64,000 bases of DNA from Candidatus Zhuqueibacterota bacterium (GCA_034505495.1 JAPDQV010000014.1:4967-68966); one strand, 5' to 3'. Shown: positions 1 to 14,646, counted from the first letter of the stretch. Notes: generated by a model not told the origin, from the letters alone. Numbers and translations are program-made.

Positions 1-673
1 CGCCGTGCAGAAAGCCGAGGTAGGGATCGAGTCCGTGCGCGGCGGCAAGGGCGAACAGTTCGTTAAATACCAGAGTGTAGCCGAGGCTGAGCAGGGCGTT
101 TACCGGGTCTTTGGGCGGCCGGCGCGAGCGCTCCTGAAAGGTGAAATCGCCGCGCAGCAGGCGGCCGAAAGCGCGGAAATAAGCCGCGGCGGCGCCGCCT
201 TCGACGCCCATCAGGCTGCCGATCGTCTGCGCGCGCTCGATGCGCCGACAAGCAGAGCCGACGGCCTCCAGGCTTTGGCCGATCTGTTCGTCGTCGATGC
301 GGGCGGCGTAGCGCTGCAGCAGTTTTTCCGTATGCCTCAGCTTGGCGCGCACAATGGCCTTGGCCGTCTGCAGGCTGAATTCCTCGTCCAGCACCCGTTC
401 ATACTGGGCCAGGCGAAGAAAGACGTTTTTGGCTGAAAGCGCATGCAGGCGGCCGCGCAGCTTGCCGTTTGAGGTGAGAAACGCGACCTCGATGCCTTCT
501 TCGAGCAGCGCTTCCATAGCCTGAGTGGTGATTTGTACGGGCCCGAACAGCAGGACTGCGTCGAGGCGGATGAGCGGCATCTGCGCCAGTTTTTCCTTGC
601 CTTTGCACACCACCAGGGAGTGGGAGGAGAGCCGTACCACGGCTCCGGGTTCCGTCACATAAAGGGTGTTCAT
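1..673 (-). CDS. cas1: Cas1 integrase, N-terminal ~224 codons; the 3' part runs off the left edge of the window
   Basis: Own translation of the minus strand from the ATG at complement(671..673): MNTLYVTEPGAVVRLSSHSLVVCKGKEKLAQMPLIRLDAVLLFGPVQITTQAMEALLEEGIEVAFLTSNGKLRGRL...FQERSRRPPKDPVNALLSLGYTLVFNE...GLDPYLGFLHG. This is the canonical Cas1 N-terminal domain and the start of the helical catalytic domain. It is absent from the ORF track because it is open at the window edge. The 5..436(+) ORF is its antisense shadow. Confidence 0.9.
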   Translation of the reverse strand, partial: MNTLYVTEPGAVVRLSSHSLVVCKGKEKLAQMPLIRLDAVLLFGPVQITTQAMEALLEEGIEVAFLTSNGKLRGRLHALSAKNVFLRLAQYERVLDEEFSLQTAKAIVRAKLRHTEKLLQRYAARIDDEQIGQSLEAVGSACRRIERAQTIGSLMGVEGGAAAAYFRAFGRLLRGDFTFQERSRRPPKDPVNALLSLGYTLVFNELFALAAAHGLDPYLGFLHG

Positions 674-683
674 AAGCAGGCCT

Positions 684-3545
684 TTAGATTTCCAAGATCC
701 ATTTCAGCTCGCCGTTGATTTTAACGCGCTGCAGGCGGCCGTAGAGTGTGTCAAAGCGGTCGCAGCCGCACTGCGCGGCAAGTCGGTCGAGCTCTTTTTC
801 CAATTCGGCGAGTTGCTGTTCGAGCCGCCGCTTTTTGCGGCTGCAGGCGAGAAAGAGGCCCACCAGGCGGTCGAGCGAAGCCGACGGCACGGATGCAGCC
901 TCGACGGCCTGGGCCTGCGGCGGCTCGGCCTTCACCCGTTCGGCCGGCGCTTGTTCCGGCTTAACTCCGGCCTGAAGCTCTTTCTTCAACCGAACGACGG
1001 CTTCGGCGTCGGCGTATAGGAGCGGCGAGGGATAGCCGCCCGCTTTTTCCGGCAGGCGGCAATTGCAGCCGAGCCGCGGCGTGACCTCCTGATGCCGCAG
1101 GCGGATTTTCGGGCAGCTCAAAGGCAGGCGGTGGGGCCGGCGAAACCATTTTTCCGTAATGCGGGCGTCATAGTTGAGCGTGTGACCGATGATTTCGTGC
1201 AGCTTTTGCCGTCCTGCTTCGCCCAGGTGGCCGAGCACTCCCAGCAGGGTCAGGCGTTCGAGGTGGGTCAGATGCTGTTGTCTTTCGGCCTTTTCGGCGA
1301 GCCAGTGCAGCACGCGGCAGCCGTTCATGACCGCCTCTACGCGTTTCTGCTCTTCGGGCGGCAGGGGAGAGGCGACGGGCAGCTTGGGTTCGGCGAGCCG
1401 CCGGAGGGCTGCGCGGATTTGTTCCGCAGAGACGGTTCGGATGTTTAGGAGCTCGGCCATAGGGTCGGGGACCGGCAGGCCGTCGGCGCCCACCCAGACG
1501 CAGCGCCGGCGCGTCAAAAGATGAAGGCCCAGCGGCAGCTTGATCAACGGGCCGCAGGCGTCGGCGGACACGCGGCTTTGCGCCGGAAAGTATTCGATGT
1601 GCACTTCCGGAGCCGCGCGGTTGCAGGCAAGGATTTTTTTGGCCAGTTTAACGACCTGTTCGGCCGGCGTCGGCTCCTTGATAAAGATCCACAGGTGGTA
1701 GCCTTTATAGCCCGAATCTTCGGCATAGGCGGGCAGGCCGAGCGTCTGCAGCAGCTGCTGCAGTTTGCGGGTTTCGCTCCAGGCGCGCCGGCGCCAGAGG
1801 TCGCGCTCCTCCGGGCGTTCGAGAAATTCCTGCGCCGATTTGACGAGATCGATGTCGAACACCAGATGGCGCACGGTTTGGTCCATGCGCACGAGATACA
1901 TGGCCAGCGTGGTTTGGCCGGCAAAATGGCGGGCAATGTCTTCCGCCTCGATGGGTCGCTTGACGGGCATGTATCCCGACCGACCGTCGGCGCTGAGCCA
2001 CTGCACGGCATGGATTCCTTCGCGGCCTTGGAACATTTCGCGAAAGCGCTGAACGTGCTCCTGGGTAAAGACGGGCGGCGCCTCTTCCTTATGCGGCGGC
2101 TCGAGCAGGGATTTGAGTTCCGGTTTGAGTTCCACCGCTCTGACGAACAGTTTGTCGGCGGCGCCGAAGAGCGAAAAATCCTGCAGCGCGGCGCCGAGAG
2201 CAAAGTGATAGTCGCCCTTTTCGGGAGCATTCTGGACGGCCTTTTGCAGCCAGCGCAGGGCGGCGTCGCGGCGGCCCTCGCGCAGGTAGAACAGGCCGAG
2301 GGCAAAGGCGGCTTCGCCGGAGGAAGGGTCGAGCCGATAAGCGGTGGTCAGGGCGTCGCGGGCGACGGCGTCCAAACCGACGCGTTCGCACAGGGTTGCA
2401 AAACGTACCAGGGTTTCGGTGTCGGAGCAGGGCAGGTCGACGGCGGTCTGCAGCAGGCTGCGCGCCTTCGCCTCGCCTTCGGCCTGCAGCGCCAAAGCTG
2501 CTTTTACGAGGGTCTTTTTCAGCTCGTCACCTTCTTCCGGAATGCGGTCGATCTGCGCCGCCAGCTGGGTAAAATTCGTCTGCCGATCCAGGCGATAATA
2601 GTTCAGCCAGCCCCGCACCAGAGCGTCCAGCTTTTCCTCCCACTGGTGCCGATTGAGCGCTAAAAATTTGCCGAGCAGCGAGCTGACCGATTGTTCCAGG
2701 CGGTTGTAGGAAGCCTTGTCGGGTCGGCGGCCGTTCAGGTCGAAATGAAAGCCGAGAAAGGAAAAGCCGTCCTTGAGGTGGACGATCTCTGTTTTGTCCG
2801 GGTGATAAGCCAATTCCAACGCCTGCAGTTCGACTTCGATTTTTTGAAACGCTTCGCGGACGAGCTCTTCGGTGTAATCGAGCACGAGCAGGTTATCGGA
2901 ATAGCGGATATACTGCCAGGAAGCGCGGCAGAGGGCGTCGTCGAGCGGGTGGAGATAGATGTTGGAAAAGAGGGGACTGCAGCAGGTTCCCTGGGCGATG
3001 CCGCGGCCGTCGGGCTTTTCGTAATTCTGCAGAATTACATGGATGAGTTTGAGCAGTCGGTCGTCGTCGATCGTGCGGCCCATCTCCTGCAGCAGGATCT
3101 GCCGATTGATCATGTCGAAAAAGTCTTCGATGTCGAGGTTGAGCACCCAGTGTCGGCCCTTTTTCAGGTGACGTTCCACCCGCTCGACGGCCTTGAGGGC
3201 CGAGCGGCCCGGCCGATAGGCATAGCTGCAGTTGTGAAAGATCTTTTCATAAATCGGCTGCAGCACGAGCACGACGGCCTGCTGGACGATGCGGTCGCGC
3301 ACTGCCGGAATGTGCAGAACGCGCTCGCCGCCGTCTTCTTTGCGCACGGTGAACGTTTTCAGCGGCAGCGGCTGATAGGCGCCGCTGTGCAGCTCGGCGG
3401 CCAGCTCTTCGAGCTGTTCGGAGGCGTTTTCTTCGAATTCATCGACCGAAACGTTGTCGCTTCCCGGCGCGCCGCCGCTCAGCAGCACTTTTTCCCAGGC
3501 GGCGGAGAGAGTGTCGAGCTCGGTAAGTTGATTGAACAAGAACAT
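684..3545 (-). CDS. Reverse transcriptase (group II intron-like) - TPR - primase-polymerase (AEP/PrimPol) fusion protein, CRISPR adaptation-associated
   Basis: 953-aa ORF. aa 1-325 carry RT blocks 1-7 (APGSDNVSVDEF; RVLHIPAVRDRIVQQAV; SYAYRPGRSALKAV; LNLDIEDFFD; AQGTCCSPLFSNIYL; RYSDNLLVL; FSFLGFHF) plus the thumb/maturase motif RGWLNYY. aa ~345-478 are TPR-like repeats (AAFALGLFYLREGRRDAALRWLQKAVQNAP). aa ~495-700 carry archaeo-eukaryotic primase motifs (LVFDIDL = DxD, SGYKGYHLWIF = His motif, LIKLPLGLH). A Cys/His helical region and a coiled-coil tail follow. The stop codon is 10 nt upstream of the cas1 ATG. Confidence 0.85.
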   Translation of the reverse strand: MFLFNQLTELDTLSAAWEKVLLSGGAPGSDNVSVDEFEENASEQLEELAAELHSGAYQPLPLKTFTVRKEDGGERVLHIPAVRDRIVQQAVVLVLQPIYEKIFHNCSYAYRPGRSALKAVERVERHLKKGRHWVLNLDIEDFFDMINRQILLQEMGRTIDDDRLLKLIHVILQNYEKPDGRGIAQGTCCSPLFSNIYLHPLDDALCRASWQYIRYSDNLLVLDYTEELVREAFQKIEVELQALELAYHPDKTEIVHLKDGFSFLGFHFDLNGRRPDKASYNRLEQSVSSLLGKFLALNRHQWEEKLDALVRGWLNYYRLDRQTNFTQLAAQIDRIPEEGDELKKTLVKAALALQAEGEAKARSLLQTAVDLPCSDTETLVRFATLCERVGLDAVARDALTTAYRLDPSSGEAAFALGLFYLREGRRDAALRWLQKAVQNAPEKGDYHFALGAALQDFSLFGAADKLFVRAVELKPELKSLLEPPHKEEAPPVFTQEHVQRFREMFQGREGIHAVQWLSADGRSGYMPVKRPIEAEDIARHFAGQTTLAMYLVRMDQTVRHLVFDIDLVKSAQEFLERPEERDLWRRRAWSETRKLQQLLQTLGLPAYAEDSGYKGYHLWIFIKEPTPAEQVVKLAKKILACNRAAPEVHIEYFPAQSRVSADACGPLIKLPLGLHLLTRRRCVWVGADGLPVPDPMAELLNIRTVSAEQIRAALRRLAEPKLPVASPLPPEEQKRVEAVMNGCRVLHWLAEKAERQQHLTHLERLTLLGVLGHLGEAGRQKLHEIIGHTLNYDARITEKWFRRPHRLPLSCPKIRLRHQEVTPRLGCNCRLPEKAGGYPSPLLYADAEAVVRLKKELQAGVKPEQAPAERVKAEPPQAQAVEAASVPSASLDRLVGLFLACSRKKRRLEQQLAELEKELDRLAAQCGCDRFDTLYGRLQRVKINGELKWILEI

Positions 3546-3590
3546 AAGACCACCCCAGGTCTAATTTCTGTTTTGCTGCACGACCGCCCG

Positions 3591-3693
3591 TCGTAGGGCG
3601 ACATTTATGTCGCCGATCTTGGGCGTCGTCGTAGGGCGGCATTTATGCCGCCGATCTCGGATGTCATCATCGTAGGGCGACATTTATGTCGCC
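3591..3693. repeat. Three tandem REP-like palindromic units (GTAG + 18-bp perfect palindrome), periods 38 and 41 bp
   Basis: TCGTAGGGCGACATTTATGTCGCC lies at 3591-3614 and 3670-3693. TCGTAGGGCGGCATTTATGCCGCC lies at 3629-3652. The two differences in the middle copy are compensatory and keep the palindrome GGCG(A/G)CAT-TT-ATG(T/C)CGCC intact. Confidence 0.8.
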
Positions 3694-3697
3694 CCCG

Positions 3698-3740
3698 TGT
3701 CGCCCCCCTGTCGCCCCCCTGTCGCCCCCCGTCGCCCGCC
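3698..3740. repeat. 11-bp tandem direct repeat TGTCGCCCCCC x3 plus degenerate GTCGCCCGCC, reusing the palindrome half-site
   Basis: Read directly: tgtcgcccccc (3698-3708), tgtcgcccccc (3709-3719), tgtcgcccccc (3720-3730), gtcgcccgcc (3731-3740). Confidence 0.8.
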
Positions 3741-3778
3741 TCGTTCCGCAACCCATTTTTTTAATTCCACACCCGCCC

Positions 3779-4924
3779 TCAAAATATCGACGAGCTTTCG
3801 GCTTTTCTTTTGATCTTCTCCAGCACTTTCGTCAGGGCTTGGGGATTCTGAAGCGTTTCTCCGTCGACGATATTAATACCAAAGAGCTTTTCTGCCCGCT
3901 GATAGTGTTTGTCCTTGACTTGATTTCTCTCCTTTCCAGGCCTCGACAGCGTAAAAATGTACGCAAAAACCTGCAGACCGAATTCGCGACGCAGGGCTTC
4001 CAGTTTATAAATGGCATCCTCCATAATGTCTTTATCCTGACTGCTGCCGATGCCGGTCTTGCATTCGATCACATAAAGAGCGTTTTCATAGACAAAGGCA
4101 ATGTCCAATTCGTTATTGACCTCCTGCTTGCGAATCTGTATGGAGCAGCCTATAAAAGGATCTTTCAAATCAAAGTATGCGCGGTATAGGTCATAAACAT
4201 ATTCTTCGAACCAGCCGCCGATGAGATAACGGACTTCTTCCTTGGCAAGTTTTTTCCATTCGGCATCTTTAGGCTGAAACGGTGAACGCTGCAATAGCTC
4301 GACAAGTTCGGGCAGTTCGCTCATCGACTTTTCGGCAACTTCACGGTTTTTGCGCAGGTCGTTTAAAAGACCGCGTTCATTATCGGACATATCCACAAAA
4401 AAATCGAAAAACCGGCGCGTTTCCTCTGCCGAGCGTACGAGTTGATGAATATTTTTGGGGTTAGTGATTTCTATTCCATACGCGGTCAAATATTCCGTCA
4501 GGTTGACGCGATAAGCGAGCGGATACAGCTTTTGCCGCACGCGCGGAAAAATCTTCCAATACAAGTTTTTGCCGATGGGGATGTAATAGATCTCACTTTC
4601 TCGTTCGCGGAAGAAATTATAGACGGCCAGCGACATGATTTTGGTGCCGCCGGTGACGTTGACGATAAAGCGGTCGTCGTCGGCAAACTCGACGCTTTGC
4701 AGGCATCTTTCAATGTCCTCCAGGTCGTCTTTTTTGACGACCAGCGGTTCGAGAAAACAGTCGTCAGAGAGGCCCAACGCCGATATCAGCGCCTGCCTTT
4801 TGCCCTGCTGTTCCATTTGTTCCGTCGTAATAAAAAGATGTCGGTCGACGTTCTGCATCTGTTTGATAAGGAGAAAATTGGGGATGGTCTGTTCGCTGAT
4901 CAAGGAGATCATGATGGTTGCCAT
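3779..4924 (-). CDS. card1: CARF + PD-(D/E)xK nuclease effector, Card1/Can2 family (DUF1887), cyclic-oligoadenylate activated
   Basis: 381 aa. The N-terminal CARF signature is ISLISEQTIPNFLLIKQ ... VNVTGGTKIMSLAVYNFF ... IYYIPIGKN. The C-terminal restriction-endonuclease-like core is YLIGGWFEEYVY ... NELDIAFVYENALYVIECKTG ... DAIYKLEAL. Length and motif order match Card1/Can2. Confidence 0.85.
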   Translation of the reverse strand: MATIMISLISEQTIPNFLLIKQMQNVDRHLFITTEQMEQQGKRQALISALGLSDDCFLEPLVVKKDDLEDIERCLQSVEFADDDRFIVNVTGGTKIMSLAVYNFFRERESEIYYIPIGKNLYWKIFPRVRQKLYPLAYRVNLTEYLTAYGIEITNPKNIHQLVRSAEETRRFFDFFVDMSDNERGLLNDLRKNREVAEKSMSELPELVELLQRSPFQPKDAEWKKLAKEEVRYLIGGWFEEYVYDLYRAYFDLKDPFIGCSIQIRKQEVNNELDIAFVYENALYVIECKTGIGSSQDKDIMEDAIYKLEALRREFGLQVFAYIFTLSRPGKERNQVKDKHYQRAEKLFGINIVDGETLQNPQALTKVLEKIKRKAESSSIF

Positions 4925-4944: not shown

Positions 4945-5904
4945 TTAAAAAGAATTTATAGTCAATTCATATCGTCCAAAGCCCCGCGAGGTGTCGCTGC
5001 CGATGTGCGTATATTCGCCGGCCCGCAGTAGGGGCAGAAACGGGGACAGATCGCCGGTCAAGGTCACTTCGCCGATAACCGCTTTGATGACCTGTCGGCG
5101 CTGCTGACGGGAAGAGTAAGGATAGAAGACCAGACGCTGAAACCGATGGTCTTCCGACTGTATGCCGGCGACGAAAGATTGAATGATCGCCGAATAATCG
5201 ATCGACCAGGCCTGCGCGTGCTGCGCCGCCAACAGAGACAAGCGGCGGAGCAGGGTGCGGATCAGAATTTCGGCGGTCAAATCAAATTCCGGTCGGTTAT
5301 GATGGATGATTTGCACCGGCGTTATAAATTTTAGCCGTGCTGAAGTTAATTGTGCCTCGCCGTCAAAATCCTGCAGCTGCAGTACGACGGGTTGGTCGAT
5401 TAAACAGCGGGTTGAAGGATCATAGAGTCGCTTTTCAGCAAAGCGGTCGCGGATATCCGCAAGATGAATCTTTGCCCGAGTGCGGCCGAGCCCCAACTCG
5501 CAGACTTTGAGAACGGCGTACACATAGAACGGTAGAAAAGAGACGCCGCGGCCGATGAGGGTTACAAATAGAGAAAAAGATTGTCCTCTTCGAACGGTTT
5601 GCGCTTGGCTCAAAGAAAGGCTCCAAACCATCGGATGCGGGAGTTTTTCGGCTTCGAAGCGGAGAGACTTTTCGGCTGCTTTCGGGGTTTCGAAGAGATA
5701 GCCGTAGGGGCAGTTGCTGTTAAAGGGGCACGGTCGACAATCCATCCGGCTGTTTTTGAGGATGCAGAGCGACCGCAGCGCCAATCCCAAAACGCTGCGG
5801 AAGGTAAAGCCTGGAAAGTCACGGAATTCGAGCTCATCGACGGCGGTCAGACGGAATTCGAGCGCTGCGAGCGGCAACGGCATATGCTGCAGAGGCAACT
5901 TCAT
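4945..5904 (-). CDS. cas6: Cas6-like pre-crRNA endoribonuclease (RAMP, Cys-rich PF10040-like type)
   Basis: 319 aa. It has a Cys cluster (CRPCPFNSNCPYGYLF) and a C-terminal glycine-rich RAMP loop (HIGSDTSRGFGRYEL). It sits inside the type III locus, where no other Cas6 is present. Confidence 0.6.
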   Translation of the reverse strand: MKLPLQHMPLPLAALEFRLTAVDELEFRDFPGFTFRSVLGLALRSLCILKNSRMDCRPCPFNSNCPYGYLFETPKAAEKSLRFEAEKLPHPMVWSLSLSQAQTVRRGQSFSLFVTLIGRGVSFLPFYVYAVLKVCELGLGRTRAKIHLADIRDRFAEKRLYDPSTRCLIDQPVVLQLQDFDGEAQLTSARLKFITPVQIIHHNRPEFDLTAEILIRTLLRRLSLLAAQHAQAWSIDYSAIIQSFVAGIQSEDHRFQRLVFYPYSSRQQRRQVIKAVIGEVTLTGDLSPFLPLLRAGEYTHIGSDTSRGFGRYELTINSF

Positions 5905-5958: not shown

Positions 5959-6327
5959 TTAAAGAAACTGCATCAGCAGCGTGCGCCATCCCAGAACGGC
6001 ATCGGCTTGCACCTCCTCGCCGATGGTCGGCCGAAACCCTTGCCGGTAAATAGGAGTCACCAAAAGCACCTCTGAAAAGGCCGCTCCGTAAAGAGCGGGC
6101 AGCATTTCTTCGTTCAAGACCAGAGCCGGCCGCGGCTCTTTGGGCGTCAAATCAATGCCCAAAATCGCATTAACCACCTTGAGGGTGTTTTCGTGTCCCC
6201 AGGAAGATTCATAACCGCGTTCGAGAATGAGCTGTTTCGCCCGTTCGATCTCGATGGGCTCGATGAGCACGCGTCGGTAGATGAGTGAAAATGGAAAAGC
6301 GTTGGCGATTAACAAAGGAGGTTTCAT
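5959..6327 (-). CDS. crn2: DUF1874 family protein, Crn2/AcrIII-1-like cyclic tetra-adenylate ring nuclease
   Basis: 122 aa. LLIANAFPFSLI ... SSWGHENTLKVVNAILG parallels the ANAFS..ML and GH..T...N..(L/C)G motifs of the AcrIII-1/DUF1874 family as I recall them, including the catalytic His position. It is encoded between csm5 and cas6. Confidence 0.65.
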   Translation of the reverse strand: MKPPLLIANAFPFSLIYRRVLIEPIEIERAKQLILERGYESSWGHENTLKVVNAILGIDLTPKEPRPALVLNEEMLPALYGAAFSEVLLVTPIYRQGFRPTIGEEVQADAVLGWRTLLMQFL

Positions 6328-6599: not shown

Positions 6600-7808
6600 T
6601 CAGGCGTTGGAAGCGGTTTGCCGCGGTACTATTTGCACCCAGCCCAGCAGAGAGGTCGGCCTGCCGTCGGCGCCTATGACGACGCGCCGCGTTTTGGGGA
6701 ACTCGCCGATCCGGATTTTGCCGTAGCGATTCGGCCAGGCCTTTTTTAGGCCTTGTTGAATGGAGTTTTTATAAAGCTCCTCATTTTTTTGCGCCAAGAG
6801 CAGATTGATCGTCGTACTCAAAAAGCCCTGACCCATGCCGAGGCGCAGAAACGGCGTCTGCGGGGTGTTTTCCTTTTTCAGGTTTTCGATAAGCGCAGTT
6901 ATCTCTTCCTTATCTTTGAAAAATTCACTTTCTTCTTCCAAAACGTCTTTGGCGCGCTCATGGCAGACCGTCAAAAAATGATCCAAGCTCCAATCATCGA
7001 ACCGCTGCAAACCCAATTCCCCGCGATATTTTTCCTTGATGTCAAAGAACGTGACATAAAGGGTTATTTCGGCGTTCGGAGCGATGCATTCCAGCCAGAC
7101 GCGCGTATTGGGGTTTTCGAGATCGGATTGCGTCATCTCGAGGCGCATATATTGCGGTTTGGCGTAGGTGTCTTGAAACTGAAAGAAACGCAACACATCG
7201 AATTTGGCGTCGCTATTTTTTCCCCGAAAGGCCGAGTTTTCCAGCTTTTCAGAAATCTTTTCGAATTTTTTCTCAATTTTACGATTGTTAAAGTCGGTAC
7301 TGTTTTCCATCAATTTTTGCAACTCTTGCAGGGATGCTTGGTACTCGTTAAACAATTTAGTCTCATTTTTTAACAAGTAATGCAGATATGCCGTGCGGAA
7401 GGCGCCTTTGATTTCGGAACCGGGGATGCAGGGCGAATGGCCTATCCTTTTAATGCAGGCGTGAAAGCCCAACCGTTCCGGGGGGTGGGTAAAGGAGAGC
7501 TGGTATTGACGAGTTTTGGCAATAAACTGCTCGTCGGCACTCAGCAGGTTCTGATTCTCGAAAAATTGGTTGAGGCTGAACTCGGTATCCCTTTTCTTGG
7601 CGTGCATCAACGATTCCAGATACTCCAGCAGCGCATCTTTTTGAGTTTTATTCAGCCTTTCCATTAGCTTTGAGAAATTCAAAACATGGAGCTTTTTATT
7701 CTCTCTGTCGATATAATAGGCAACCGGCTTGACCTGTTCGCCGCTGCCGACAAACACCGGCGTCAAAGTGCGCAGCCTAAAAGATTTTTTCTCCGGTTTG
7801 ACAGTCAT
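6600..7808 (-). CDS. csm5: Csm5 (type III-A RAMP, Cas7 family)
   Basis: The ORF track extends to 8057, but the first 83 codons overlap csm4 in another frame. The ATG at complement(7806..7808) forms an ATGA overlap with the csm4 stop. Motifs: MTVKPEKKSFRLRTLTPVFVGSGE, CIPGSEIKGAFRTAYL, FLRLGMGQGF. Confidence 0.85.
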   Translation of the reverse strand: MTVKPEKKSFRLRTLTPVFVGSGEQVKPVAYYIDRENKKLHVLNFSKLMERLNKTQKDALLEYLESLMHAKKRDTEFSLNQFFENQNLLSADEQFIAKTRQYQLSFTHPPERLGFHACIKRIGHSPCIPGSEIKGAFRTAYLHYLLKNETKLFNEYQASLQELQKLMENSTDFNNRKIEKKFEKISEKLENSAFRGKNSDAKFDVLRFFQFQDTYAKPQYMRLEMTQSDLENPNTRVWLECIAPNAEITLYVTFFDIKEKYRGELGLQRFDDWSLDHFLTVCHERAKDVLEEESEFFKDKEEITALIENLKKENTPQTPFLRLGMGQGFLSTTINLLLAQKNEELYKNSIQQGLKKAWPNRYGKIRIGEFPKTRRVVIGADGRPTSLLGWVQIVPRQTASNA

Positions 7809-8890
7809 GCTCTTCCTCCTATTGCAGCTTTGACGGCGATCGCCGTTCCGGCGTGGTAGACGGAGCGATCTTCTTGTACATCGACCTGAATCAGGCGGCC
7901 GTAGAAAGGCTTTTGGGACTGCGGTAGGGGGAATACCGAACCTTCGGCAAACAGACGGACGCCCCGCTCGCGGTAAGGATGCTGCGAAGCGGAAAAGCGG
8001 TTTTCCACTTTGCCGCGGTGACCGACCAAATGATAGAAAATCGGCTTGGCCGACCAATCGATTTCATCGTGCGCCGGCAGATAACGGGACAGCATGACGA
8101 CGGCATCGGCGCGCTCAACCGCAGGCAATTCAAACGGCTCCGGCTCGCTGAAAGCAAATTGTCCTTTGCCGACGCTGCGGTCGCCGCCCAAACCGGTGTC
8201 CTCGAGCCAGCGCAGCACCGGCCGCCAAAACGCCGCGTCCTCGGCATAGAACAGAAACCATAAGCCGGTGTGCTCTGCAAAAGATACCCCTGTGCGCATG
8301 AACAGTTGCCCTTCTGCGGTGGCCAGGCCGACTCGGTCGACGGCGTTGCCCTGCGCCATAACCTCTCGAATCTCCGGCGCCTTGAATGTCGCGGCTTCGT
8401 TTTTGCCCATCAAGATATTGCCGCAGAGCTGAAGATCCTTTTCCGTTTCTTCCGCATACAGAAGAGAGGCAAAAATTGACGGCCGCGTCAGTCGACCGGT
8501 AATGATCTCGGTAAAGAGCGAATGGGAGACGAACGCGAGTCGGTTCAGTTTTTTGTTCAACTCGACGATTTGGATGAGGGCCTGCTTTGGAGTCAGCTTC
8601 GGTTTTTTCTTTTGCAGCTCGGCGGTAAATTTTTGTATGTCGGGCGTCTGCAGCGGCGGCAGAATCGGCATGGGGAAAAACCTCAGCGTCTCTCGGCCGG
8701 CGAACGAGCAGGGAAAAGCCGAGCTGACCGCTACCGGCGGCGAGTCCGGCAGGCGTTTAAGCAGCTGCTCGAAATCGGGCGGCTTATGTATCCATCGTGC
8801 GCCCCATATCATCGCGCCGAAAAGGGTATCGGAGCGGATCGGCGAAGCAAAGGCGCAGCGCGGTCTAAGCGTAACGGCATACAGTCCCAT
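7805..8890 (-). CDS. csm4: Csm4 (type III-A RAMP, Cas5 family)
   Basis: 361 aa. MGLYAVTLRPRCAFASPIRSDTLFGAMIWG is the typical Csm4 N-terminus. The glycine loop is GLGGDRSVGKGQF. The gene lies between csm3 and csm5. Confidence 0.85.
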   Translation of the reverse strand: MGLYAVTLRPRCAFASPIRSDTLFGAMIWGARWIHKPPDFEQLLKRLPDSPPVAVSSAFPCSFAGRETLRFFPMPILPPLQTPDIQKFTAELQKKKPKLTPKQALIQIVELNKKLNRLAFVSHSLFTEIITGRLTRPSIFASLLYAEETEKDLQLCGNILMGKNEAATFKAPEIREVMAQGNAVDRVGLATAEGQLFMRTGVSFAEHTGLWFLFYAEDAAFWRPVLRWLEDTGLGGDRSVGKGQFAFSEPEPFELPAVERADAVVMLSRYLPAHDEIDWSAKPIFYHLVGHRGKVENRFSASQHPYRERGVRLFAEGSVFPLPQSQKPFYGRLIQVDVQEDRSVYHAGTAIAVKAAIGGRA

Positions 8891-8892
8891 AC

Positions 8893-9732
8893 TTAGGCTC
8901 CCTGCGCTTGTTTTTCGTGGTTAAAAAGCTTTTCGAAATTTGCTACGAAATCTTTGACGTCTTTGACTTCATTGAGCGAAACAGGTTTGCCGTTTTTGCC
9001 GTTACGATAATAATCCTCAACCGGCCGCCATTCGATGTAAAGATCTTCAAAATACACCCTGCCGCTGCCGCGGCTGCCGGCGCCGCCCAAATAGCTGTCC
9101 TCCAGCAGCGCCAGGCCGCTGAACAGCCGCTTGAGCAGAATTATATCGCTATCCTGATAAATATCTACCATCATTTCGACCTTAAAGGCGGCGCCGGCCG
9201 GCACGCGCTCCAACGGCCGCGGATTGGCGGCGGAGGTGACGCGGTCGAGCGCATTTTCGGTCTTGATTTCCGTATAGATGTTTTCGCCCAAATATTTTTC
9301 CAGATCGCTTTTGGTCAGATATTTTCTTTTTCCACCTGACGGGTTTTCTTCATCGATGAGGTAAGCGTCGTAAACGGTCAACCGCGAAGGACCGGCAACT
9401 TGGCGGATATTGGTGTCGGAGGACGAAACGCCGAACAAGCGGCACACTTCGCAATTACCGCAGTCGCAGGGCTGAAATTTGCCGGGGGTTTTAACATTGA
9501 ATTTCGGCCCATCTTCATGACTCCACTCCAAAAGATGGCGCAGTTTGCCTTTAAGGGAAGAGCCGGGGATGTAGGGTTCTTCGGTGATCGGGTGTTTGAT
9601 GACCGGATTGTCGACGCCGCCGATCTCGATGCCCTCGGAGGACCCGCCGATGTGCAGGCCGGTGAACACCACCATCCGCGCGCGGATATAGTATTTGCCT
9701 TTAAGTTTGAGATCCATAACAAGTCCTTTCAT
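8893..9732 (-). CDS. csm3: Csm3 (Cas7 backbone/target-RNA cleaving subunit)
   Basis: 279 aa. Motifs: FTGLHIGGSSEGIEIGGVDNPVIK, YIPGSSLKGKLRHLLE, Zn-knuckle CDCGNCEVCRLFG, LGGAGSRGSGRV. The ATG forms an ATGA overlap with the csm2 stop. Confidence 0.9.
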   Translation of the reverse strand: MKGLVMDLKLKGKYYIRARMVVFTGLHIGGSSEGIEIGGVDNPVIKHPITEEPYIPGSSLKGKLRHLLEWSHEDGPKFNVKTPGKFQPCDCGNCEVCRLFGVSSSDTNIRQVAGPSRLTVYDAYLIDEENPSGGKRKYLTKSDLEKYLGENIYTEIKTENALDRVTSAANPRPLERVPAGAAFKVEMMVDIYQDSDIILLKRLFSGLALLEDSYLGGAGSRGSGRVYFEDLYIEWRPVEDYYRNGKNGKPVSLNEVKDVKDFVANFEKLFNHEKQAQGA

Positions 9733-10232
9733 CTTCTTTGGTTACGATATTTGTGGAAAGCCAAAACAGCCGTCAAAAAGTCCATGAAGCGCAGAAAATC
9801 CGCATTGGTTTGCAAAAGTTGCGCGTCGAAACACGTTTTGAAAAGTTTATAAAACTTTTCGGGAATGAGCTCTCTGCCCACGGCATAGGCCAATTCCGGC
9901 AGCAACAGAGCGACTGTTTCCCGATTAAAAAGATGGTTGGGGTCTTCTTTCTCGACTTTTCTCTGAACGGCCTTTAAACTGTGAAAGACTTTGCGCAGTT
10001 GAGTGGGCTTGAGCTTGTCTTTGAATTTCTCTGCAATGCAGTCCGCCCAGCCGTTTTCTTCGGCAAACTGGGAGACGGATACGTCTTTGAATGTTTTCTT
10101 TTCAGCTTTTAAATTGTTGATATCCTTTATGATGCTGTCTATTATTTGTTCATCTTTTTGCTTCCCTTCTGCCTGCCCTCTTTGATTAGGAAAGCTTTTT
10201 CCACCATATGTAACTGCACCTGGTCCATTCAT
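9729..10232 (-). CDS. csm2: Csm2 (Cas11 small subunit, type III-A)
   Basis: 167-aa helical protein between cas10 and csm3. Motifs: KPTQLRKVFHSLKAV and LLLPELAYAVGRE. It has ATGA start/stop overlaps with both neighbours. Confidence 0.75.
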   Translation of the reverse strand: MNGPGAVTYGGKSFPNQRGQAEGKQKDEQIIDSIIKDINNLKAEKKTFKDVSVSQFAEENGWADCIAEKFKDKLKPTQLRKVFHSLKAVQRKVEKEDPNHLFNRETVALLLPELAYAVGRELIPEKFYKLFKTCFDAQLLQTNADFLRFMDFLTAVLAFHKYRNQRR

Positions 10233-12658
10233 TTTCTTTTCTCCCTGTTTTTTAAACCGGCATACGACGCGGGCACAATCATGGCCTTCATGGCCTGACG
10301 CACGGATTCGATCAGATTCAGTCGCTCATCCTCAAGCACCTCCTTTCGAATTCTTCGCGATAATGCATAATAGGCTTTGGGGATCCACATCGGGTTTTCA
10401 CGGCCGTTGCGGAAATGCTGCAGATGCAGCCGATGCAAAAGATAGACGATCGAGCGCGGCACGGAGCGGCTCCGCACGGCTTCCGCCAGGCGAATGCCGA
10501 AATCGATCAGATCGGCAAACTCGTCCCATTCCAGCACCTTGCCGAAAATAGATACATGATTGCGGGTCCGGCCTTTGACCTCCGTTTCTTTGGCCTGATG
10601 TAGGGCGCGGTCGGCAAGCTCGGCAAAGCGCTGAATCGGATAGTTCGGCTTGACCAGAACGATTCCGGCGGACAAGTGCAGATTGGGATTGCCGCCCGCA
10701 AAGCGCTGGAACTCGTTGCGGATGCGCAAAGCCAAATGCAGCGTCTGCTCCCACGGCCCGATGACCAGCAGGTCGTCGCCGCCGGAGTAAACCAGGTAAA
10801 ACAGGCTTTCGAGCAGGCCGCGCCGCGGATCGTTCTCCTCAAGGCTGCTTTCCCATGTTCGGGTTTGCTCCCGACAGATTTCGTTGAGCCAACCGGCGAA
10901 AAAGAAATCGAACTGACTGCTCAGCGCCGCCAAGCGGGAAATGGTCGGTCGGTCGAAACCGGCGCTGAACAAGAGTCCCAAGCGATCCACGTCCATCTTT
11001 AACACGCCGAGGTAATCGGCACCTTCGCCTAGGGAGGCTATTTCCTCAAATTCCAGCATCTCATCGCGATGAAAGACCAGTTCCTGCTCGGATTGACGAA
11101 CCGATTTCTGCACGATCGGCGCCGCGCCGCCTAGGAACTGAAATCCGTAAGAGATATTTGTCAGCGGAATTTCAAATTTGCCCGGCTTATTCAAAGACAA
11201 AACAAAAAGTTCTCCCTCGGCGTCACGAACAAAAGCAGCGTATTGCTTTTCGTCAAGCAGATAAGCGGTCGATCTCTCTTCAGGCAGGTCAAAGTCAATT
11301 GCATTAAATCCGGCTAACGGCTGTGAACCATATGTAAAGATCAAATAACCATCGTTGACCCGCGGAATCCAACCGCCGATTTCTTTGTGAGTTTCGCAAT
11401 CTCGACAGGGCTTTCTCTGATTTCCCTGCAGGACAGCCGGATGAATGCCGCAAATCGGGCAGAGCTCCTGCATGGCGTCGATTGTGAAAACCTGGGGTTT
11501 TTTCGCTAAAAGCGGCAGGTATTTTTGCAGCTTTTTTTCCGACAATCTGTCGTCGATTTTGCGATAGACCGTTGCAAACCGTTCCGACTGCACAAAGTCG
11601 GCGACGGCTATCTCCACCCAGGCCGTCACCAAACCGATCTCGCCGCTGTAGGTGTTCAGCAAATATTCCTGCAGCATCTCTTCATATTCGACAAGCCGTT
11701 GCCGGACGTCCTCCGTGTTCGGCAACAGCAAATCGAAATTGCCGCCGCCGCAATAAAGAATATTGGTGATCGGCAGGTCGAATCGGCGACGAAACCATTC
11801 CGCCAACGTCTGATTGAGCAATGACAAATAGAAAGAGCGGCCTCGGAGACGTTTGGCCGTGCCTTTCGTCTCATCGCCCCTGGTGATGCGATAAATCCAT
11901 GCCTGGATGCCGGAAAGATCGCCGCGCAGGAGCAGACAAGGTTTGCTTTCCGGAGGTGTGTAGCTGCGCAGATTATTGAGGATATCTGCGAAAAGGTTTG
12001 CAGACCAGTCAAGATCGACCAGGCAGGCGGCAATAGCCGCCGTCATTCGGCTGTGATCAAAGAGGGACACATCCGGTATGGTGCGCAGTTCATCCTTTTC
12101 CCACGGCGTAGCGCCGGGCATAAAGGAGGTATACACTTTTAATAGATAAAATAGCGTGGTCAGGTCGGCAGATTGGTAGGTGCGGCCGGTCGTGATCTTT
12201 TGCAAAGACTGCATGAATTCATTCCACAAATCGACATAGCTGCCTTCGGCCAGCTGAGGCTGATCTATGGGAAAAACCGTGTCCGCAAGCTCGAGTTTTT
12301 GCAGTTGATGATATTTTTCTTCTACCTGATCGTTTTCCAAACGTACTCGCGAAACGGCAGCCGTCAAAGCCGACAAGTGGGGCGATAGTTGATCACGTTC
12401 TTCCTTTTCCCGTTCTCCGGCAGCCAGCCAATCGGCCAACTGGACGATGAGGGCAGCCGGGTCATTTCCCGTTTGATGGTGATGCAGCGTCAATCGAATC
12501 AATTCATCCGCCCGTTCGCCCCAGTATGGCCGGGAAGAACGGAAAAAGGCCTCGGTGAGTTGTTCGTGTTTCATTTTCATTTCGCTGAGGTAACGCTGCG
12601 AAAGCTTGCCGATATCGTGCAGCAGTGCCGCCAGGATGATGGTTTCCTTATCAGTCAT
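10229..12658 (-). CDS. cas10: Cas10/Csm1 with intact HD nuclease and GGDD cyclase motifs
   Basis: 809 aa. N-terminal HD domain (IILAALLHDIGK), Zn ribbon (CPICGIHP...CRDCETH) and Palm/cyclase motif (LVYSGGDDLLVIGPWE). Confidence 0.92.
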   Translation of the reverse strand: MTDKETIILAALLHDIGKLSQRYLSEMKMKHEQLTEAFFRSSRPYWGERADELIRLTLHHHQTGNDPAALIVQLADWLAAGEREKEERDQLSPHLSALTAAVSRVRLENDQVEEKYHQLQKLELADTVFPIDQPQLAEGSYVDLWNEFMQSLQKITTGRTYQSADLTTLFYLLKVYTSFMPGATPWEKDELRTIPDVSLFDHSRMTAAIAACLVDLDWSANLFADILNNLRSYTPPESKPCLLLRGDLSGIQAWIYRITRGDETKGTAKRLRGRSFYLSLLNQTLAEWFRRRFDLPITNILYCGGGNFDLLLPNTEDVRQRLVEYEEMLQEYLLNTYSGEIGLVTAWVEIAVADFVQSERFATVYRKIDDRLSEKKLQKYLPLLAKKPQVFTIDAMQELCPICGIHPAVLQGNQRKPCRDCETHKEIGGWIPRVNDGYLIFTYGSQPLAGFNAIDFDLPEERSTAYLLDEKQYAAFVRDAEGELFVLSLNKPGKFEIPLTNISYGFQFLGGAAPIVQKSVRQSEQELVFHRDEMLEFEEIASLGEGADYLGVLKMDVDRLGLLFSAGFDRPTISRLAALSSQFDFFFAGWLNEICREQTRTWESSLEENDPRRGLLESLFYLVYSGGDDLLVIGPWEQTLHLALRIRNEFQRFAGGNPNLHLSAGIVLVKPNYPIQRFAELADRALHQAKETEVKGRTRNHVSIFGKVLEWDEFADLIDFGIRLAEAVRSRSVPRSIVYLLHRLHLQHFRNGRENPMWIPKAYYALSRRIRKEVLEDERLNLIESVRQAMKAMIVPASYAGLKNREKRK

Positions 12659-13041: not shown

Positions 13042-14646
13042 TCATCGGTACTTGTACAGGCGGAAACGTTGGGCGCTCATTTTGCCCGGCTCTAAACGAA
13101 TGTGTCGGCCCTGGTGCGTCTGGTCGCCGTTGAGCCGACGAATCGGCTGGGGGGCGCCGCCGACAAAGCGGACCTCCTGCGCCCACAATATGCCGGCGCG
13201 CTCGTCTTCGGGGCCGGCCGATTCGAAGGTAATCGTGAGCCCGGCGCCCGCGACAAGGAACTCGTTCCGAGACAAGACCCACAGCAGGCCGCCGCTGCGT
13301 TCCCAGGATTCTCGGTCGTACTGAACGTTGACGACAAAATCGCCGGCAATCAGCCGCTGCGGTTGGCGTTGTTCCGGCCCTTTGGAAAGCAGTCCGAAGG
13401 ACAGAGCGCCCGGGTAACCTTCGAGAAGGAACGGCGCCATGCCGGCGAGCAGACCGTAGGCGTCGGCCAGCGCGGCTCGCGTTTCCGCATCGATCGACTC
13501 GATGGCGAAGGGGCTGAATCCCATAGCCTTATGCTGCCCGAAGGCGTAAAGGGCCTGGACGCCGTTGTTCGGACCTGGTTGGATTTCGGGAATGAACAGC
13601 GGGTTGTCGGGACGGCGGTATTGGGCCGTCCAATCGGTAAAGTCGCCGAAATAGATGTCCGGAGCCGCAAAATCGATGTGCGGCGCCGCCGCCTTCCAGA
13701 TCTCCAGGTTGTGCGGCAGCGGTCCGCCGCTTGCATATTGGCCGGGCTGATAGCCGGGACGAATGAGCGCGGCGTTGACAAACATCGGCAGAGGGTATTC
13801 GGCCTTGCCGCGCTCGGCGACCTGATCGATGTAGCGCGCCAAGTGCCAAGCCATGAAAAAATCGTCGGTGAGCGGGGAAGGGCCGAATACCTCCGACCAA
13901 CTGCCGCTCGTGCGGAAGCCGCCGGAGGACCAGGCCTGCCGCAGCGTCGGGTGCAGACGCTCTTTTTCCTGCATCAGGCGGGTTATCAGTTCACTCGGTA
14001 CCGGCGCTTGAAAAAGGCTTTCGGCGACGACGCTGCGGTCGCGCGAGTCGGGGATGATGCCGACTTCATTCTCCACCTGTACCAGGATGACGGTATGCGC
14101 GACGCCGTCGACTTGGCGGAGGTGCCGCATGAGCGCTGCAAAGGCGCGCGCATCGGCCTCCAGATTTGCGCGGCTGAACGGTGAAAGGATTTCCATCCCG
14201 CGGCCGGATTTGTCCTGGGCGCGCGGAAAGCGCTGCGTATCGATTTTGACCCAGGAAGGGACGTAGCATGACATGCAGTTTTTCCACGAGCCGAACCAGA
14301 GGAGAACCAGCCGAATGTTGGCCTTGCGCGCATCCGCGATCAAGCCGTCGACGAGGCCAAAGTCGAATTGCCCCTCGGTCGGTTCGATCATCTCCCAGTA
14401 AACCGGGGTCAGCAGCGTGTTGAGGTTGAGCGCAGCCAGATTCGGCCAATGAGGATGCAGATAGTCCGGAAACGCGGACGAGTTGCCGATTTCGCCGGCG
14501 AGCATGAGAAAGGGTTTGCCGTCGACGATCAGCCTGCTTGTGTTTCCGTCATTTTGCAGGTAGGGCAGCGGCGATTTGCAAAAGCCGGACAGTATCGGCA
14601 GAATCACTTGCCATAGGATTAATAAAATTTTCGTTTTACTGATCAT
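13042..14646 (-). CDS. Secreted clan GH-A glycoside hydrolase, GH35-like beta-galactosidase family (DUF5597-type C-terminus)
   Basis: 534 aa with a signal peptide. Motifs: VDGKPFLMLAGEIGNSS, NTLLTPVYWEMIEPTEGQFDF, LLWFGSWKNCMSCYVPSWVK, VILVQVENEVGI (acid/base NE motif). Confidence 0.65.
   Translation of the reverse strand: MISKTKILLILWQVILPILSGFCKSPLPYLQNDGNTSRLIVDGKPFLMLAGEIGNSSAFPDYLHPHWPNLAALNLNTLLTPVYWEMIEPTEGQFDFGLVDGLIADARKANIRLVLLWFGSWKNCMSCYVPSWVKIDTQRFPRAQDKSGRGMEILSPFSRANLEADARAFAALMRHLRQVDGVAHTVILVQVENEVGIIPDSRDRSVVAESLFQAPVPSELITRLMQEKERLHPTLRQAWSSGGFRTSGSWSEVFGPSPLTDDFFMAWHLARYIDQVAERGKAEYPLPMFVNAALIRPGYQPGQYASGGPLPHNLEIWKAAAPHIDFAAPDIYFGDFTDWTAQYRRPDNPLFIPEIQPGPNNGVQALYAFGQHKAMGFSPFAIESIDAETRAALADAYGLLAGMAPFLLEGYPGALSFGLLSKGPEQRQPQRLIAGDFVVNVQYDRESWERSGGLLWVLSRNEFLVAGAGLTITFESAGPEDERAGILWAQEVRFVGGAPQPIRRLNGDQTHQGRHIRLEPGKMSAQRFRLYKYR

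Follow-up and report, generated by a model that had tools for sequence, protein, structure and literature searches.

Can a reverse transcriptase (RT) still work when the second aspartate of its YxDD catalytic motif has been replaced by asparagine? This question is raised by a gene on the minus strand (684-3545) of a 64,000-nucleotide stretch of DNA from a Candidatus Zhuqueibacterota bacterium (GCA_034505495.1 JAPDQV010000014.1:4967-68966), the whole of which is called the window below. The gene encodes a single polypeptide that joins an RT, a TPR region and a primase-polymerase (Prim-Pol), and block 5 of the RT (motif C) reads Tyr-Ser-Asp-Asn (YSDN). According to Mönttinen et al. (2012, PMC3394715), the second Asp of this motif does not vary in any RT and binds both metal A and a third ion that is non-catalytic. 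Our analysis shows YSDN to be a real variant of RT motif C that is inherited and under selection. With regard to its function, we give about an even chance to the reading that an RT with a remodelled metal-A/third-ion site still binds deoxynucleoside triphosphate (dNTP) and works beside an active Prim-Pol, its synthesis being attenuated or Mn2+-biased. The new element is the YSDN state of the RT, since adaptation enzymes in which a CRISPR-associated RT (CART) is fused to a CRISPR-associated primase-polymerase (CAPP) are already known.

The YSDN motif and its inheritance

On the minus strand, the codons TAT (2903-2901), TCC (2900-2898), GAT (2897-2895) and AAC (2894-2892) encode Y215, S216, D217 and N218, which stand in the context WQYIRYSDNLLVL of the 953-amino acid (aa) open reading frame (ORF). 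A sequence-only reading of the window had first pointed out this motif, and both the translation and an alignment with chains from the Protein Data Bank (PDB) confirmed it. The gene and the parts of its RT domain, all on the minus strand, are as follows.

684-3545, minus strand: RT-TPR-PrimPol-C-terminal domain gene of CART-CAPP type, CAPP type A1, 953 aa (Pfam, NCBIfam, AlphaFold2)
2556-3545, minus strand: RT domain, aa 1-330, group II intron-like, fingers-palm-thumb/X (phmmer, 7UIM 1.5e-46, 6AR1 5e-45)
3114-3134, minus strand: RT block 3 (motif A), D138-I-E-D-F-F143-D144, with the metal-binding Asp and the steric-gate Phe
2988-3002, minus strand: RT block 4, G182-I-A184-Q185-G186, with Ala for the usual Pro
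2892-2903, minus strand: RT block 5 (motif C), Y215-S216-D217-N218 in place of YxDD (codons, gapless alignment, clade conservation, recurrence)
2793-2795, minus strand: Lys of RT block 6 (motif D), K251, kept in the window protein

When searched against PDB chains with phmmer, the RYSDN of the window protein aligned to the RYADD of the GsI-IIC RT (6AR1) and of the E. rectale group II RT (7UIM, 5HHL). Since the alignment runs from block 4 through block 5 with zero gaps, N218 unambiguously occupies the position of the second Asp. The full-length AlphaFold2 model (mean pLDDT 91.5) places strands 211-215 and 218-223 on either side of S216-D217, as in the canonical beta-turn-beta hairpin of motif C. 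Its RT part matched group II intron RTs by fold in Foldseek (TM 0.75-0.86; 6AR1 TMt 0.75, 5HHL TMt 0.85), and the score for TIGR04416 was 282 bits, slightly under the cutoff of 300. The remaining RT blocks are preserved, and the block 3 Asp is D138 (LNLDIEDFFD from residue 135), both as first read from the sequence. The RT thus carries D138, F143, Q185, K251, K69 and R75 as expected of a CART-CAPP protein and departs from that type in lacking the canonical YxDD of block 5.

An error of sequencing or assembly, a strain polymorphism or a decaying pseudogene would be the simplest account of such a motif, and we consider it vanishingly improbable. The ORF is intact over all its 953 codons. An exact match to the window protein (P0229) was found on a 76-kb contig, and a second assembly holds a protein on a 17.8-kb contig (MDZ7371078.1, P0001, used here for residue numbering and for the AlphaFold model) that is 99.6% identical and has the same YSDN. 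The two proteins differ by substitutions at residues 238, 326, 474 and 518, without indels and with the motifs untouched, so this KSB1 bacterium is represented by two strains or assemblies that are close relatives. The sequence-only reading had left to an alignment whether the motif is a singleton or the state of its clade. It is clade-wide: all 20 of the closest homologues, at 37-47% identity and from independent metagenomes, have [YF]SDN, and in all the motif occurs in more than 30 homologues from independent metagenomes, with the Asn codon of related loci being either AAC or AAT. Error, polymorphism and pseudogene are therefore refuted by the homologues and the second assembly. The Asp form is also found among relatives: basal RT-TPR-CAPP proteins (P0018, P0020, P0022, P0024) and TPR-less RT-CAPP proteins (P0025-P0028) have Y[AS]DD, and the TPR-less YADD fusions sit on a different RT branch in a neighbor-joining (NJ) tree.

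Recurrence of Asn at the second-Asp position

To describe the distribution of Asn at this position (xDN, as opposed to xDD), a wider set was assembled from the best 150 matches of a profile search of 1.84 billion representative proteins (50%-identity representatives) together with the first set of homologues. Block 5 could be scored in 221 RT domains of this set, and the place of the second Asp is solely D or N, with 36 xDN and 185 xDD. The xDN state occurs in 30 of the 166 RT-PrimPol fusions and in five RT-Cas1 fusions (P0032, P0034, P0039, P0045, P0053), the latter with Y[SG]DN. Two of these RT-Cas1 genes lie on contigs of 8.3 kb and 5.6 kb with the order cas6, RT-cas1, cas2 (L001 5384-7711 and L002 909-3242, for P0032 and P0045), and no PrimPol domain was detected in any frame of the available flanks. 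The RT-Cas1 xDN clade retains the motif A Asp, the first Asp of motif C, K69, R75 and the steric-gate Phe.

Trees of the RT domain were built by NJ with the four motif columns masked and with 200 bootstraps, and changes between D and N were counted by Fitch parsimony; given that only NJ was used, the exact count is soft. Over the 200 bootstraps, the number of D/N changes ranged from 5 to 10 with 7 as the median, from a DD root. The RT-Cas1 xDN clade was recovered in 91% of bootstraps and the P0146 group in 100%, while the main SDN clade, to which the window protein belongs, and the RT-Cas1 xDN clade never joined in an exclusive group. The codons of Ser216 are TCN in the RT-TPR-CAPP clade and AGC in the RT-Cas1 xDN clade, which independently supports separate origins of xDN. 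With at least five origins of xDN among CRISPR-associated RTs, its recurrence is robust. Since YSDN is inherited, under selection and has arisen several times in related enzymes, it is best regarded as a functional variant, neither an error nor the mark of a decaying gene.

We put forward, as a tentative generalisation somewhat short of an even chance, that YxDN marks a natural class of RTs that evolved repeatedly in CRISPR adaptation modules and is competent without the second Asp of motif C, being Mn2+-biased or throttled. A literature search for RT motifs of this type (YSDN, FSDN, YCDN, YGDN, YxDN, YADN) returned no mention of them in the papers that it covered.

Constraint on the RT and the intact Prim-Pol

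The reading favoured by the sequence-only analysis was in essence that the RT is catalytically dead and kept as a nucleic-acid- or dNTP-binding or scaffolding module, with the fused Prim-Pol doing all DNA synthesis. This arrangement would mirror the Caloramator and Geobacillus CART-CAPP proteins, in which the RT acts as polymerase and primase and the PrimPol is inactive in vitro (PMC10415136). We regard it as a real possibility, though one we lean against. Redundancy of RT and PrimPol, with one domain silent, is documented in the characterised fusions of that study, and the Prim-Pol of the window protein could be the main polymerase. The parts that follow the RT are as follows.

2082-2528, minus strand: TPR region, aa 340-488 (Pfam TPR families; helical repeats in the AlphaFold model)
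1404-2069, minus strand: Prim-Pol (AEP) catalytic domain, aa 493-714 (phmmer, Foldseek)
1848-1856, minus strand: Prim-Pol residues D564 and D566
1695-1697, minus strand: Prim-Pol residue H617
1521-1523, minus strand: Prim-Pol residue H675
687-1364, minus strand: C-terminal domain, aa 728-953, with a Cys-rich PriCT-like region and PF22709

Pfam searches found RVT_1 (1.3e-30, aa 67-268) and AEP-TOTE (1.1e-36, aa 496-711) in the one ORF, with TPR repeats at about aa 394-455 and PF22709 (2.5e-10) at aa 903-953. NCBIfam NF040561 (CRISPR-associated primase-polymerase type A1) matched residues 353-919 with 323.8 bits against a curated cutoff of 200, which places the protein in CAPP type A1, and NCBI has given this family name to the 99.6%-identical protein. 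The Prim-Pol domain matched the active Marinitoga CAPP (7NQD/7NQF) at 2e-32 in phmmer and superposed on 7NQE with TM 0.93 and a root-mean-square deviation of 1.7 Å in Foldseek. The sequence-only reading had noted its DxD and His motifs as intact, which they are: D564 and D566 (VFDIDLV) and H617 (GYHLW) are invariant in 28 homologues and align to the DID and GYHIW of 7NQD. From sequence and model, the domain looks like an active Prim-Pol of the Marinitoga type. The C-terminal domain has conserved cysteines at C743, C811, C827 and C829. PF22709, at 687-839 on the minus strand (aa 903-953), is a Mu Gam/Sipho_Gp157-like family described under 'TOTE conflict systems', and together with the AEP-TOTE match of the PrimPol it puts CAPP-type proteins under a conflict-system label in Pfam.

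The DxD and His motifs of the PrimPol are intact in 30/30 xDN fusions, as a dead RT would lead one to expect. However, they are also intact in 130 of 136 xDD fusions; the idea of reciprocal decay, with intact PrimPols beside xDN and degenerate ones beside xDD, was rejected, the difference lying in the expected direction but being insignificant (p=0.59). Moreover, because xDN also occurs in RT-Cas1 fusions that lack a PrimPol in the available flanks of the 8.3-kb and 5.6-kb contigs, substitution by the PrimPol is no general explanation of the motif.

The conservation of the RT itself speaks further against a dead enzyme. All 30 xDN RT-PrimPol fusions have D138, F143, R75 and D217; K69 is found in 29 and K251 in 26 of them. 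Within the main SDN clade, R75, D138, F143, Q185, D217 and K251 are invariant, K251 without exception, and K69 is kept except in one member; these include the metal ligands (D138, D217), the general acid (K251), the triphosphate binders (R75, K69) and the steric gate (F143), none of which is needed for template binding. Of the 329 RT columns, 57 are invariant in this clade, and six of the seven residues known for catalysis or dNTP binding are among them (binomial p=1.6e-4). Mean pairwise identity in the clade is 52.8% for the RT and 47.9% for the PrimPol, and the RT/PrimPol divergence ratio is 0.91, as compared with 1.00 and 0.94 in two DD groups. The RT domain of the window's clade thus gives no sign of relaxed constraint, and the invariance of its catalytic and dNTP-binding residues makes a mere RNA-binding relic unlikely. 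Of the proposal first made from the sequence, the part in which the RT is impaired and the PrimPol is the working polymerase still stands as a possibility, given the intact PrimPol and the loss of the motif 6 Lys in two other xDN lineages; the part in which the RT is purely an RNA- or template-binding module fits poorly, the RT being more conserved than the PrimPol.

The pattern of substitution around motif C bears on the same question; the statistics for the x residue and for positions 184 and 136, like those on RT conservation just given, take no account of phylogeny. The x residue of xDN is Ser, Cys or Gly in all six xDN groups, and Ala, found in 117 of 185 xDD domains, is absent from all 36 xDN domains. 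At position 184 in block 4, Pro is present in 9/36 xDN as compared with 89/183 xDD (Fisher p=0.01), and Glu appears there in one small lineage, the window protein having Ala. The acceptance of the isosteric Asn alone, together with Ser, Cys or Gly at x, looks like the tuning of an active site and unlike decay. Arg or Lys at residue 136 (window 3138-3140, two before the motif A Asp) was seen in 74/185 xDD and 0/36 xDN (Fisher p=1e-7), with Asn in the window protein; the missing basic residue may represent a lost charge partner of the second Asp. The related idea of a lost third-ion partner at 136 was rejected as stated, the position being acidic in 13/36 xDN and 92/185 xDD (p=0.15). A compensating acidic residue was looked for among the columns that separate xDN from xDD, but no acidic palm residue co-varying with N218 was found. 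E124 is enriched in xDN and was judged, from its place in the sequence and the predicted secondary structure, to lie in the fingers, off the active site.

These co-varying positions (S216, A184 and the never basic 136) might instead point to a changed chemistry or role of the RT, such as a switch or sensor that responds to dNTP, a terminal transferase that extends protospacers by a few nucleotides, or an enzyme using another metal or substrate. All xDN lineages, even those without the motif 6 Lys, conserve the dNTP-binding residues, and a preprint reports that an RT-Cas1 adds short 3'-dN tails to RNA protospacers (10.1101/2023.09.01.555893). On the other hand, the steric-gate Phe and the fingers residues match those of RTs that use dNTPs in the ordinary way, and the co-variation may reflect shared ancestry, which the statistics leave uncorrected. 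We consider a changed role unlikely.

Published work on the second Asp allows a more graded view than the sequence-only premise that its loss normally abolishes polymerisation, which proved overstated. The premise holds insofar as substitutions of this residue in the RTs and RNA-dependent RNA polymerases studied lower or abolish activity with Mg2+; however, Mn2+ restores activity to HIV RT and poliovirus 3D mutated at the second Asp, and the ADN of birnaviruses is natural and active, its Asn binding an ion, with activity rising on change to GDD (PMC3394715). GDNQ is likewise the active centre of the L proteins of negative-strand viruses (PMC5648267). In the crystal structure of the Caloramator CART-CAPP RT (8BGJ), the ligands of the metal are the Asp of motif A, a main-chain carbonyl and the first YxDD Asp, and CRISPR-associated RTs require Mn2+ or Co2+ for priming; the dead-RT controls of that work change both Asp residues, and the CART RT motifs are called 'well conserved' without mention of an Asn variant (PMC10415136).

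In the preferred reading, the RT active site would still bind dNTP and metal and still do chemistry, with its metal-A/third-ion site remodelled around Asn218. The RT would then be an attenuated and/or Mn2+-preferring polymerase-primase that yields short products. Prespacer synthesis would be shared between the RT and the intact Prim-Pol, the latter probably carrying out most of the DNA synthesis, and Cas1-Cas2 would integrate the product made by the two.

Several points weigh against this proposal, beginning with the low or absent Mg2+ activity of second-Asp mutants given above. Changing D to N at YxDD is a routine way of killing an RT for a 'dead RT' control. To our knowledge, the RTs characterised to date are all DD, and we know of none with Asn at the second-Asp position that has been assayed. 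The RT-Cas1 xDN clade has other residues in place of the Lys of block 6 'hpxKT' (LNENPQ, LNKNPY), and P0220, P0227 and P0228 lack this Lys too, so that it is lost in 7/35 xDN as compared with 1/183 xDD. This loss, enriched in xDN lineages as a dead RT would predict, makes attenuated or lost catalysis possible in the two lineages concerned, which nevertheless retain the residues for binding dNTP and metal B, and suggests that xDN lineages depend less on fast catalysis. An intact Prim-Pol in the same polypeptide would make the loss of RT catalysis tolerable, and conservation alone does not separate a slow enzyme from a dNTP-binding non-enzyme. Finally, monophyly of the main SDN clade had a bootstrap of only 29%, in NJ trees only.

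The type III-A locus and its known relatives

The RT-TPR-CAPP gene lies within a CRISPR-Cas locus whose other genes are as follows.

1-673, minus strand: cas1, N-terminal 224 codons, cut by the window start (Pfam Cas_Cas1 2.2e-71)
3779-4924, minus strand: Card1-type CARF-nuclease effector (Pfam CARF_Card1 6.5e-38, Card1_endonuc 8.4e-20)
4945-5904, minus strand: cas6 (Pfam CRISPR_Cas6 1.5e-15)
5959-6327, minus strand: 122-aa ORF between csm5 and cas6 (STIV_B116-like, sub-threshold)
6600-8057, minus strand: csm5, true start probably near 7800 (Pfam and TIGRFAM)
7805-8890, minus strand: csm4 (Pfam and TIGRFAM)
8893-9732, minus strand: csm3 (Pfam and TIGRFAM)
9729-10232, minus strand: csm2 (Pfam and TIGRFAM)
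10229-12658, minus strand: cas10 (Pfam and TIGRFAM; HD H13-D14 and GGDD at residue 626 intact)

Cas10 with its HD and GGDD motifs, Csm2-5 and a CARF effector identify the locus as type III-A (Csm), and the two Cas10 motifs are consistent with cyclic-oligoadenylate signalling to Card1. In relatives (L003, L004, L006) the order is cas6, sometimes a CARF effector, RT-TPR-CAPP, cas1 and cas2; cas2, present in these three, would lie beyond the edge of the window here. With cas1 downstream, the csm, card1 and cas6 genes upstream and this synteny in relatives, the RT-TPR-CAPP protein can be assigned as the adaptation enzyme of the type III-A locus. Its group II intron-like RT fused to a CAPP, in a gene that adjoins cas1 and a type III effector module, is the arrangement of CART-CAPP proteins. 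The sequence-only reading had set the module beside RT-Cas1 systems, a classification that needs correcting: the RT-CAPP ORF ends at 684, and cas1 is a separate downstream ORF in another frame that runs from 673, starting 10 nt past the RT-CAPP stop codon, so the protein is not an RT-Cas1 fusion. A mobile group II intron was also ruled out, since no Rfam intron RNA is present in the window and the ORF is flanked by cas genes; over the whole window, all Rfam families stayed below their gathering scores.

No CRISPR array and no CRISPR-like repeat was found within the 64-kb window. The intergenic region between card1 and the RT-CAPP gene (3589-3741) contains three tandem 38-nt units, each with a hairpin-like inverted repeat (GGCGACATTTATGTCGCC), followed by about five copies of an 11-nt unit (TGTCGCCCCCC). 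These were rejected as a CRISPR array because their spacing is too short, and they may be a regulatory or REP-like (repetitive extragenic palindromic) element upstream of the adaptation genes. The 122-aa ORF at 5959-6327 on the minus strand gave a weak STIV_B116-like Pfam match (E=7e-4, 20 bits, cutoff 26), a family that includes ring nucleases of the AcrIII-1/Crn2 type; on this sub-threshold match, its product could degrade cA4 and so turn off the neighbouring Card1. A glycosyl hydrolase-like ORF was seen at 13042-14646.

If xDN RTs are active, RT chemistry can do without this carboxylate or even profit from its loss, with consequences for metal use, processivity and priming; if they are inactive, an RT that does not polymerise has been retained several times in CRISPR adaptation modules for a different task.

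Among the closest known systems are the CART-CAPP proteins of Caloramator australicus (CCJ33120) and Geobacillus lituanicus (Zabrady et al. 2023, PMC10415136, 8BGJ), which share with the window protein an N-terminal CRISPR-associated RT, an AEP Prim-Pol and a C-terminal domain and likewise adjoin cas1/cas2 in type III loci. They differ in having YxDD, an active RT, an inactive PrimPol and no TPR region, whereas the window protein has YSDN, an inserted TPR region and a Marinitoga-type PrimPol with intact motifs. The window's clade may show a division of labour opposite to the published one, in which the PrimPol is silent. This has a bearing on how type III prespacers are synthesised from RNA or DNA and on the mining of such RTs as tools. 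Were YxDN RTs indeed a natural class of competent enzymes, YxDN in RT-TPR-CAPP would represent subfunctionalisation of two polymerases, the reverse of the Caloramator/Geobacillus arrangement.

From the TPR region onwards, the protein resembles MpCAPP of Marinitoga sp. 1137 (CAPP_A, CAPP-TPR; PMC8211822; 7NQD-7NQF, 7P9J) in its TPR region, AEP Prim-Pol and Cys-rich C-terminal domain, in the conserved DxD and His, in structure (TMt 0.93) and in a gene position upstream of cas1-cas2. MpCAPP has no RT domain, in contrast to the 330-aa N-terminal RT of the window protein. CAPP-TPR and CAPP-RT were listed as separate architectures (Zabrady et al. 2021, PMC8211822), and the window protein unites them.

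The RT-Cas1 and Cas6-RT-Cas1 proteins of Marinomonas mediterranea and Thiomicrospira (7KFT/7KFU) have an RT of related lineage (phmmer 2.8e-34 to 7KFT) and a similar inferred role in type III spacer acquisition; their characterised members are YADD, and cas1 is a separate gene in the window. The RT-Cas1 clade with Y[SG]DN and the motif 6 Lys lost (P0032, P0034, P0039, P0045, P0053) had previously been uncharacterised. Group II intron RTs (6AR1; 5HHL/7UIM) are the closest solved RTs, at about 26-30% identity, and share blocks 0-7 and the thumb/X region; the window protein has YSDN for their YADD, no En/D domains and no intron RNA around its gene.

Outside these lineages, the GDNQ L proteins of non-segmented negative-strand RNA viruses and the birnavirus VP1 with ADN also have Asn for the second Asp of motif C and are active (PMC5648267, PMC3394715), but as distant RNA-dependent RNA polymerases they speak for feasibility and not for homology. 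The RT-primase DRT7/UG10 (10.64898/2026.04.18.719102; 10.64898/2026.02.16.706125) likewise joins an RT and an AEP in one immune polypeptide; as described there, it differs in belonging to the UG/Abi RT lineage, acting through abortive infection and protein-primed synthesis and having no link to CRISPR.

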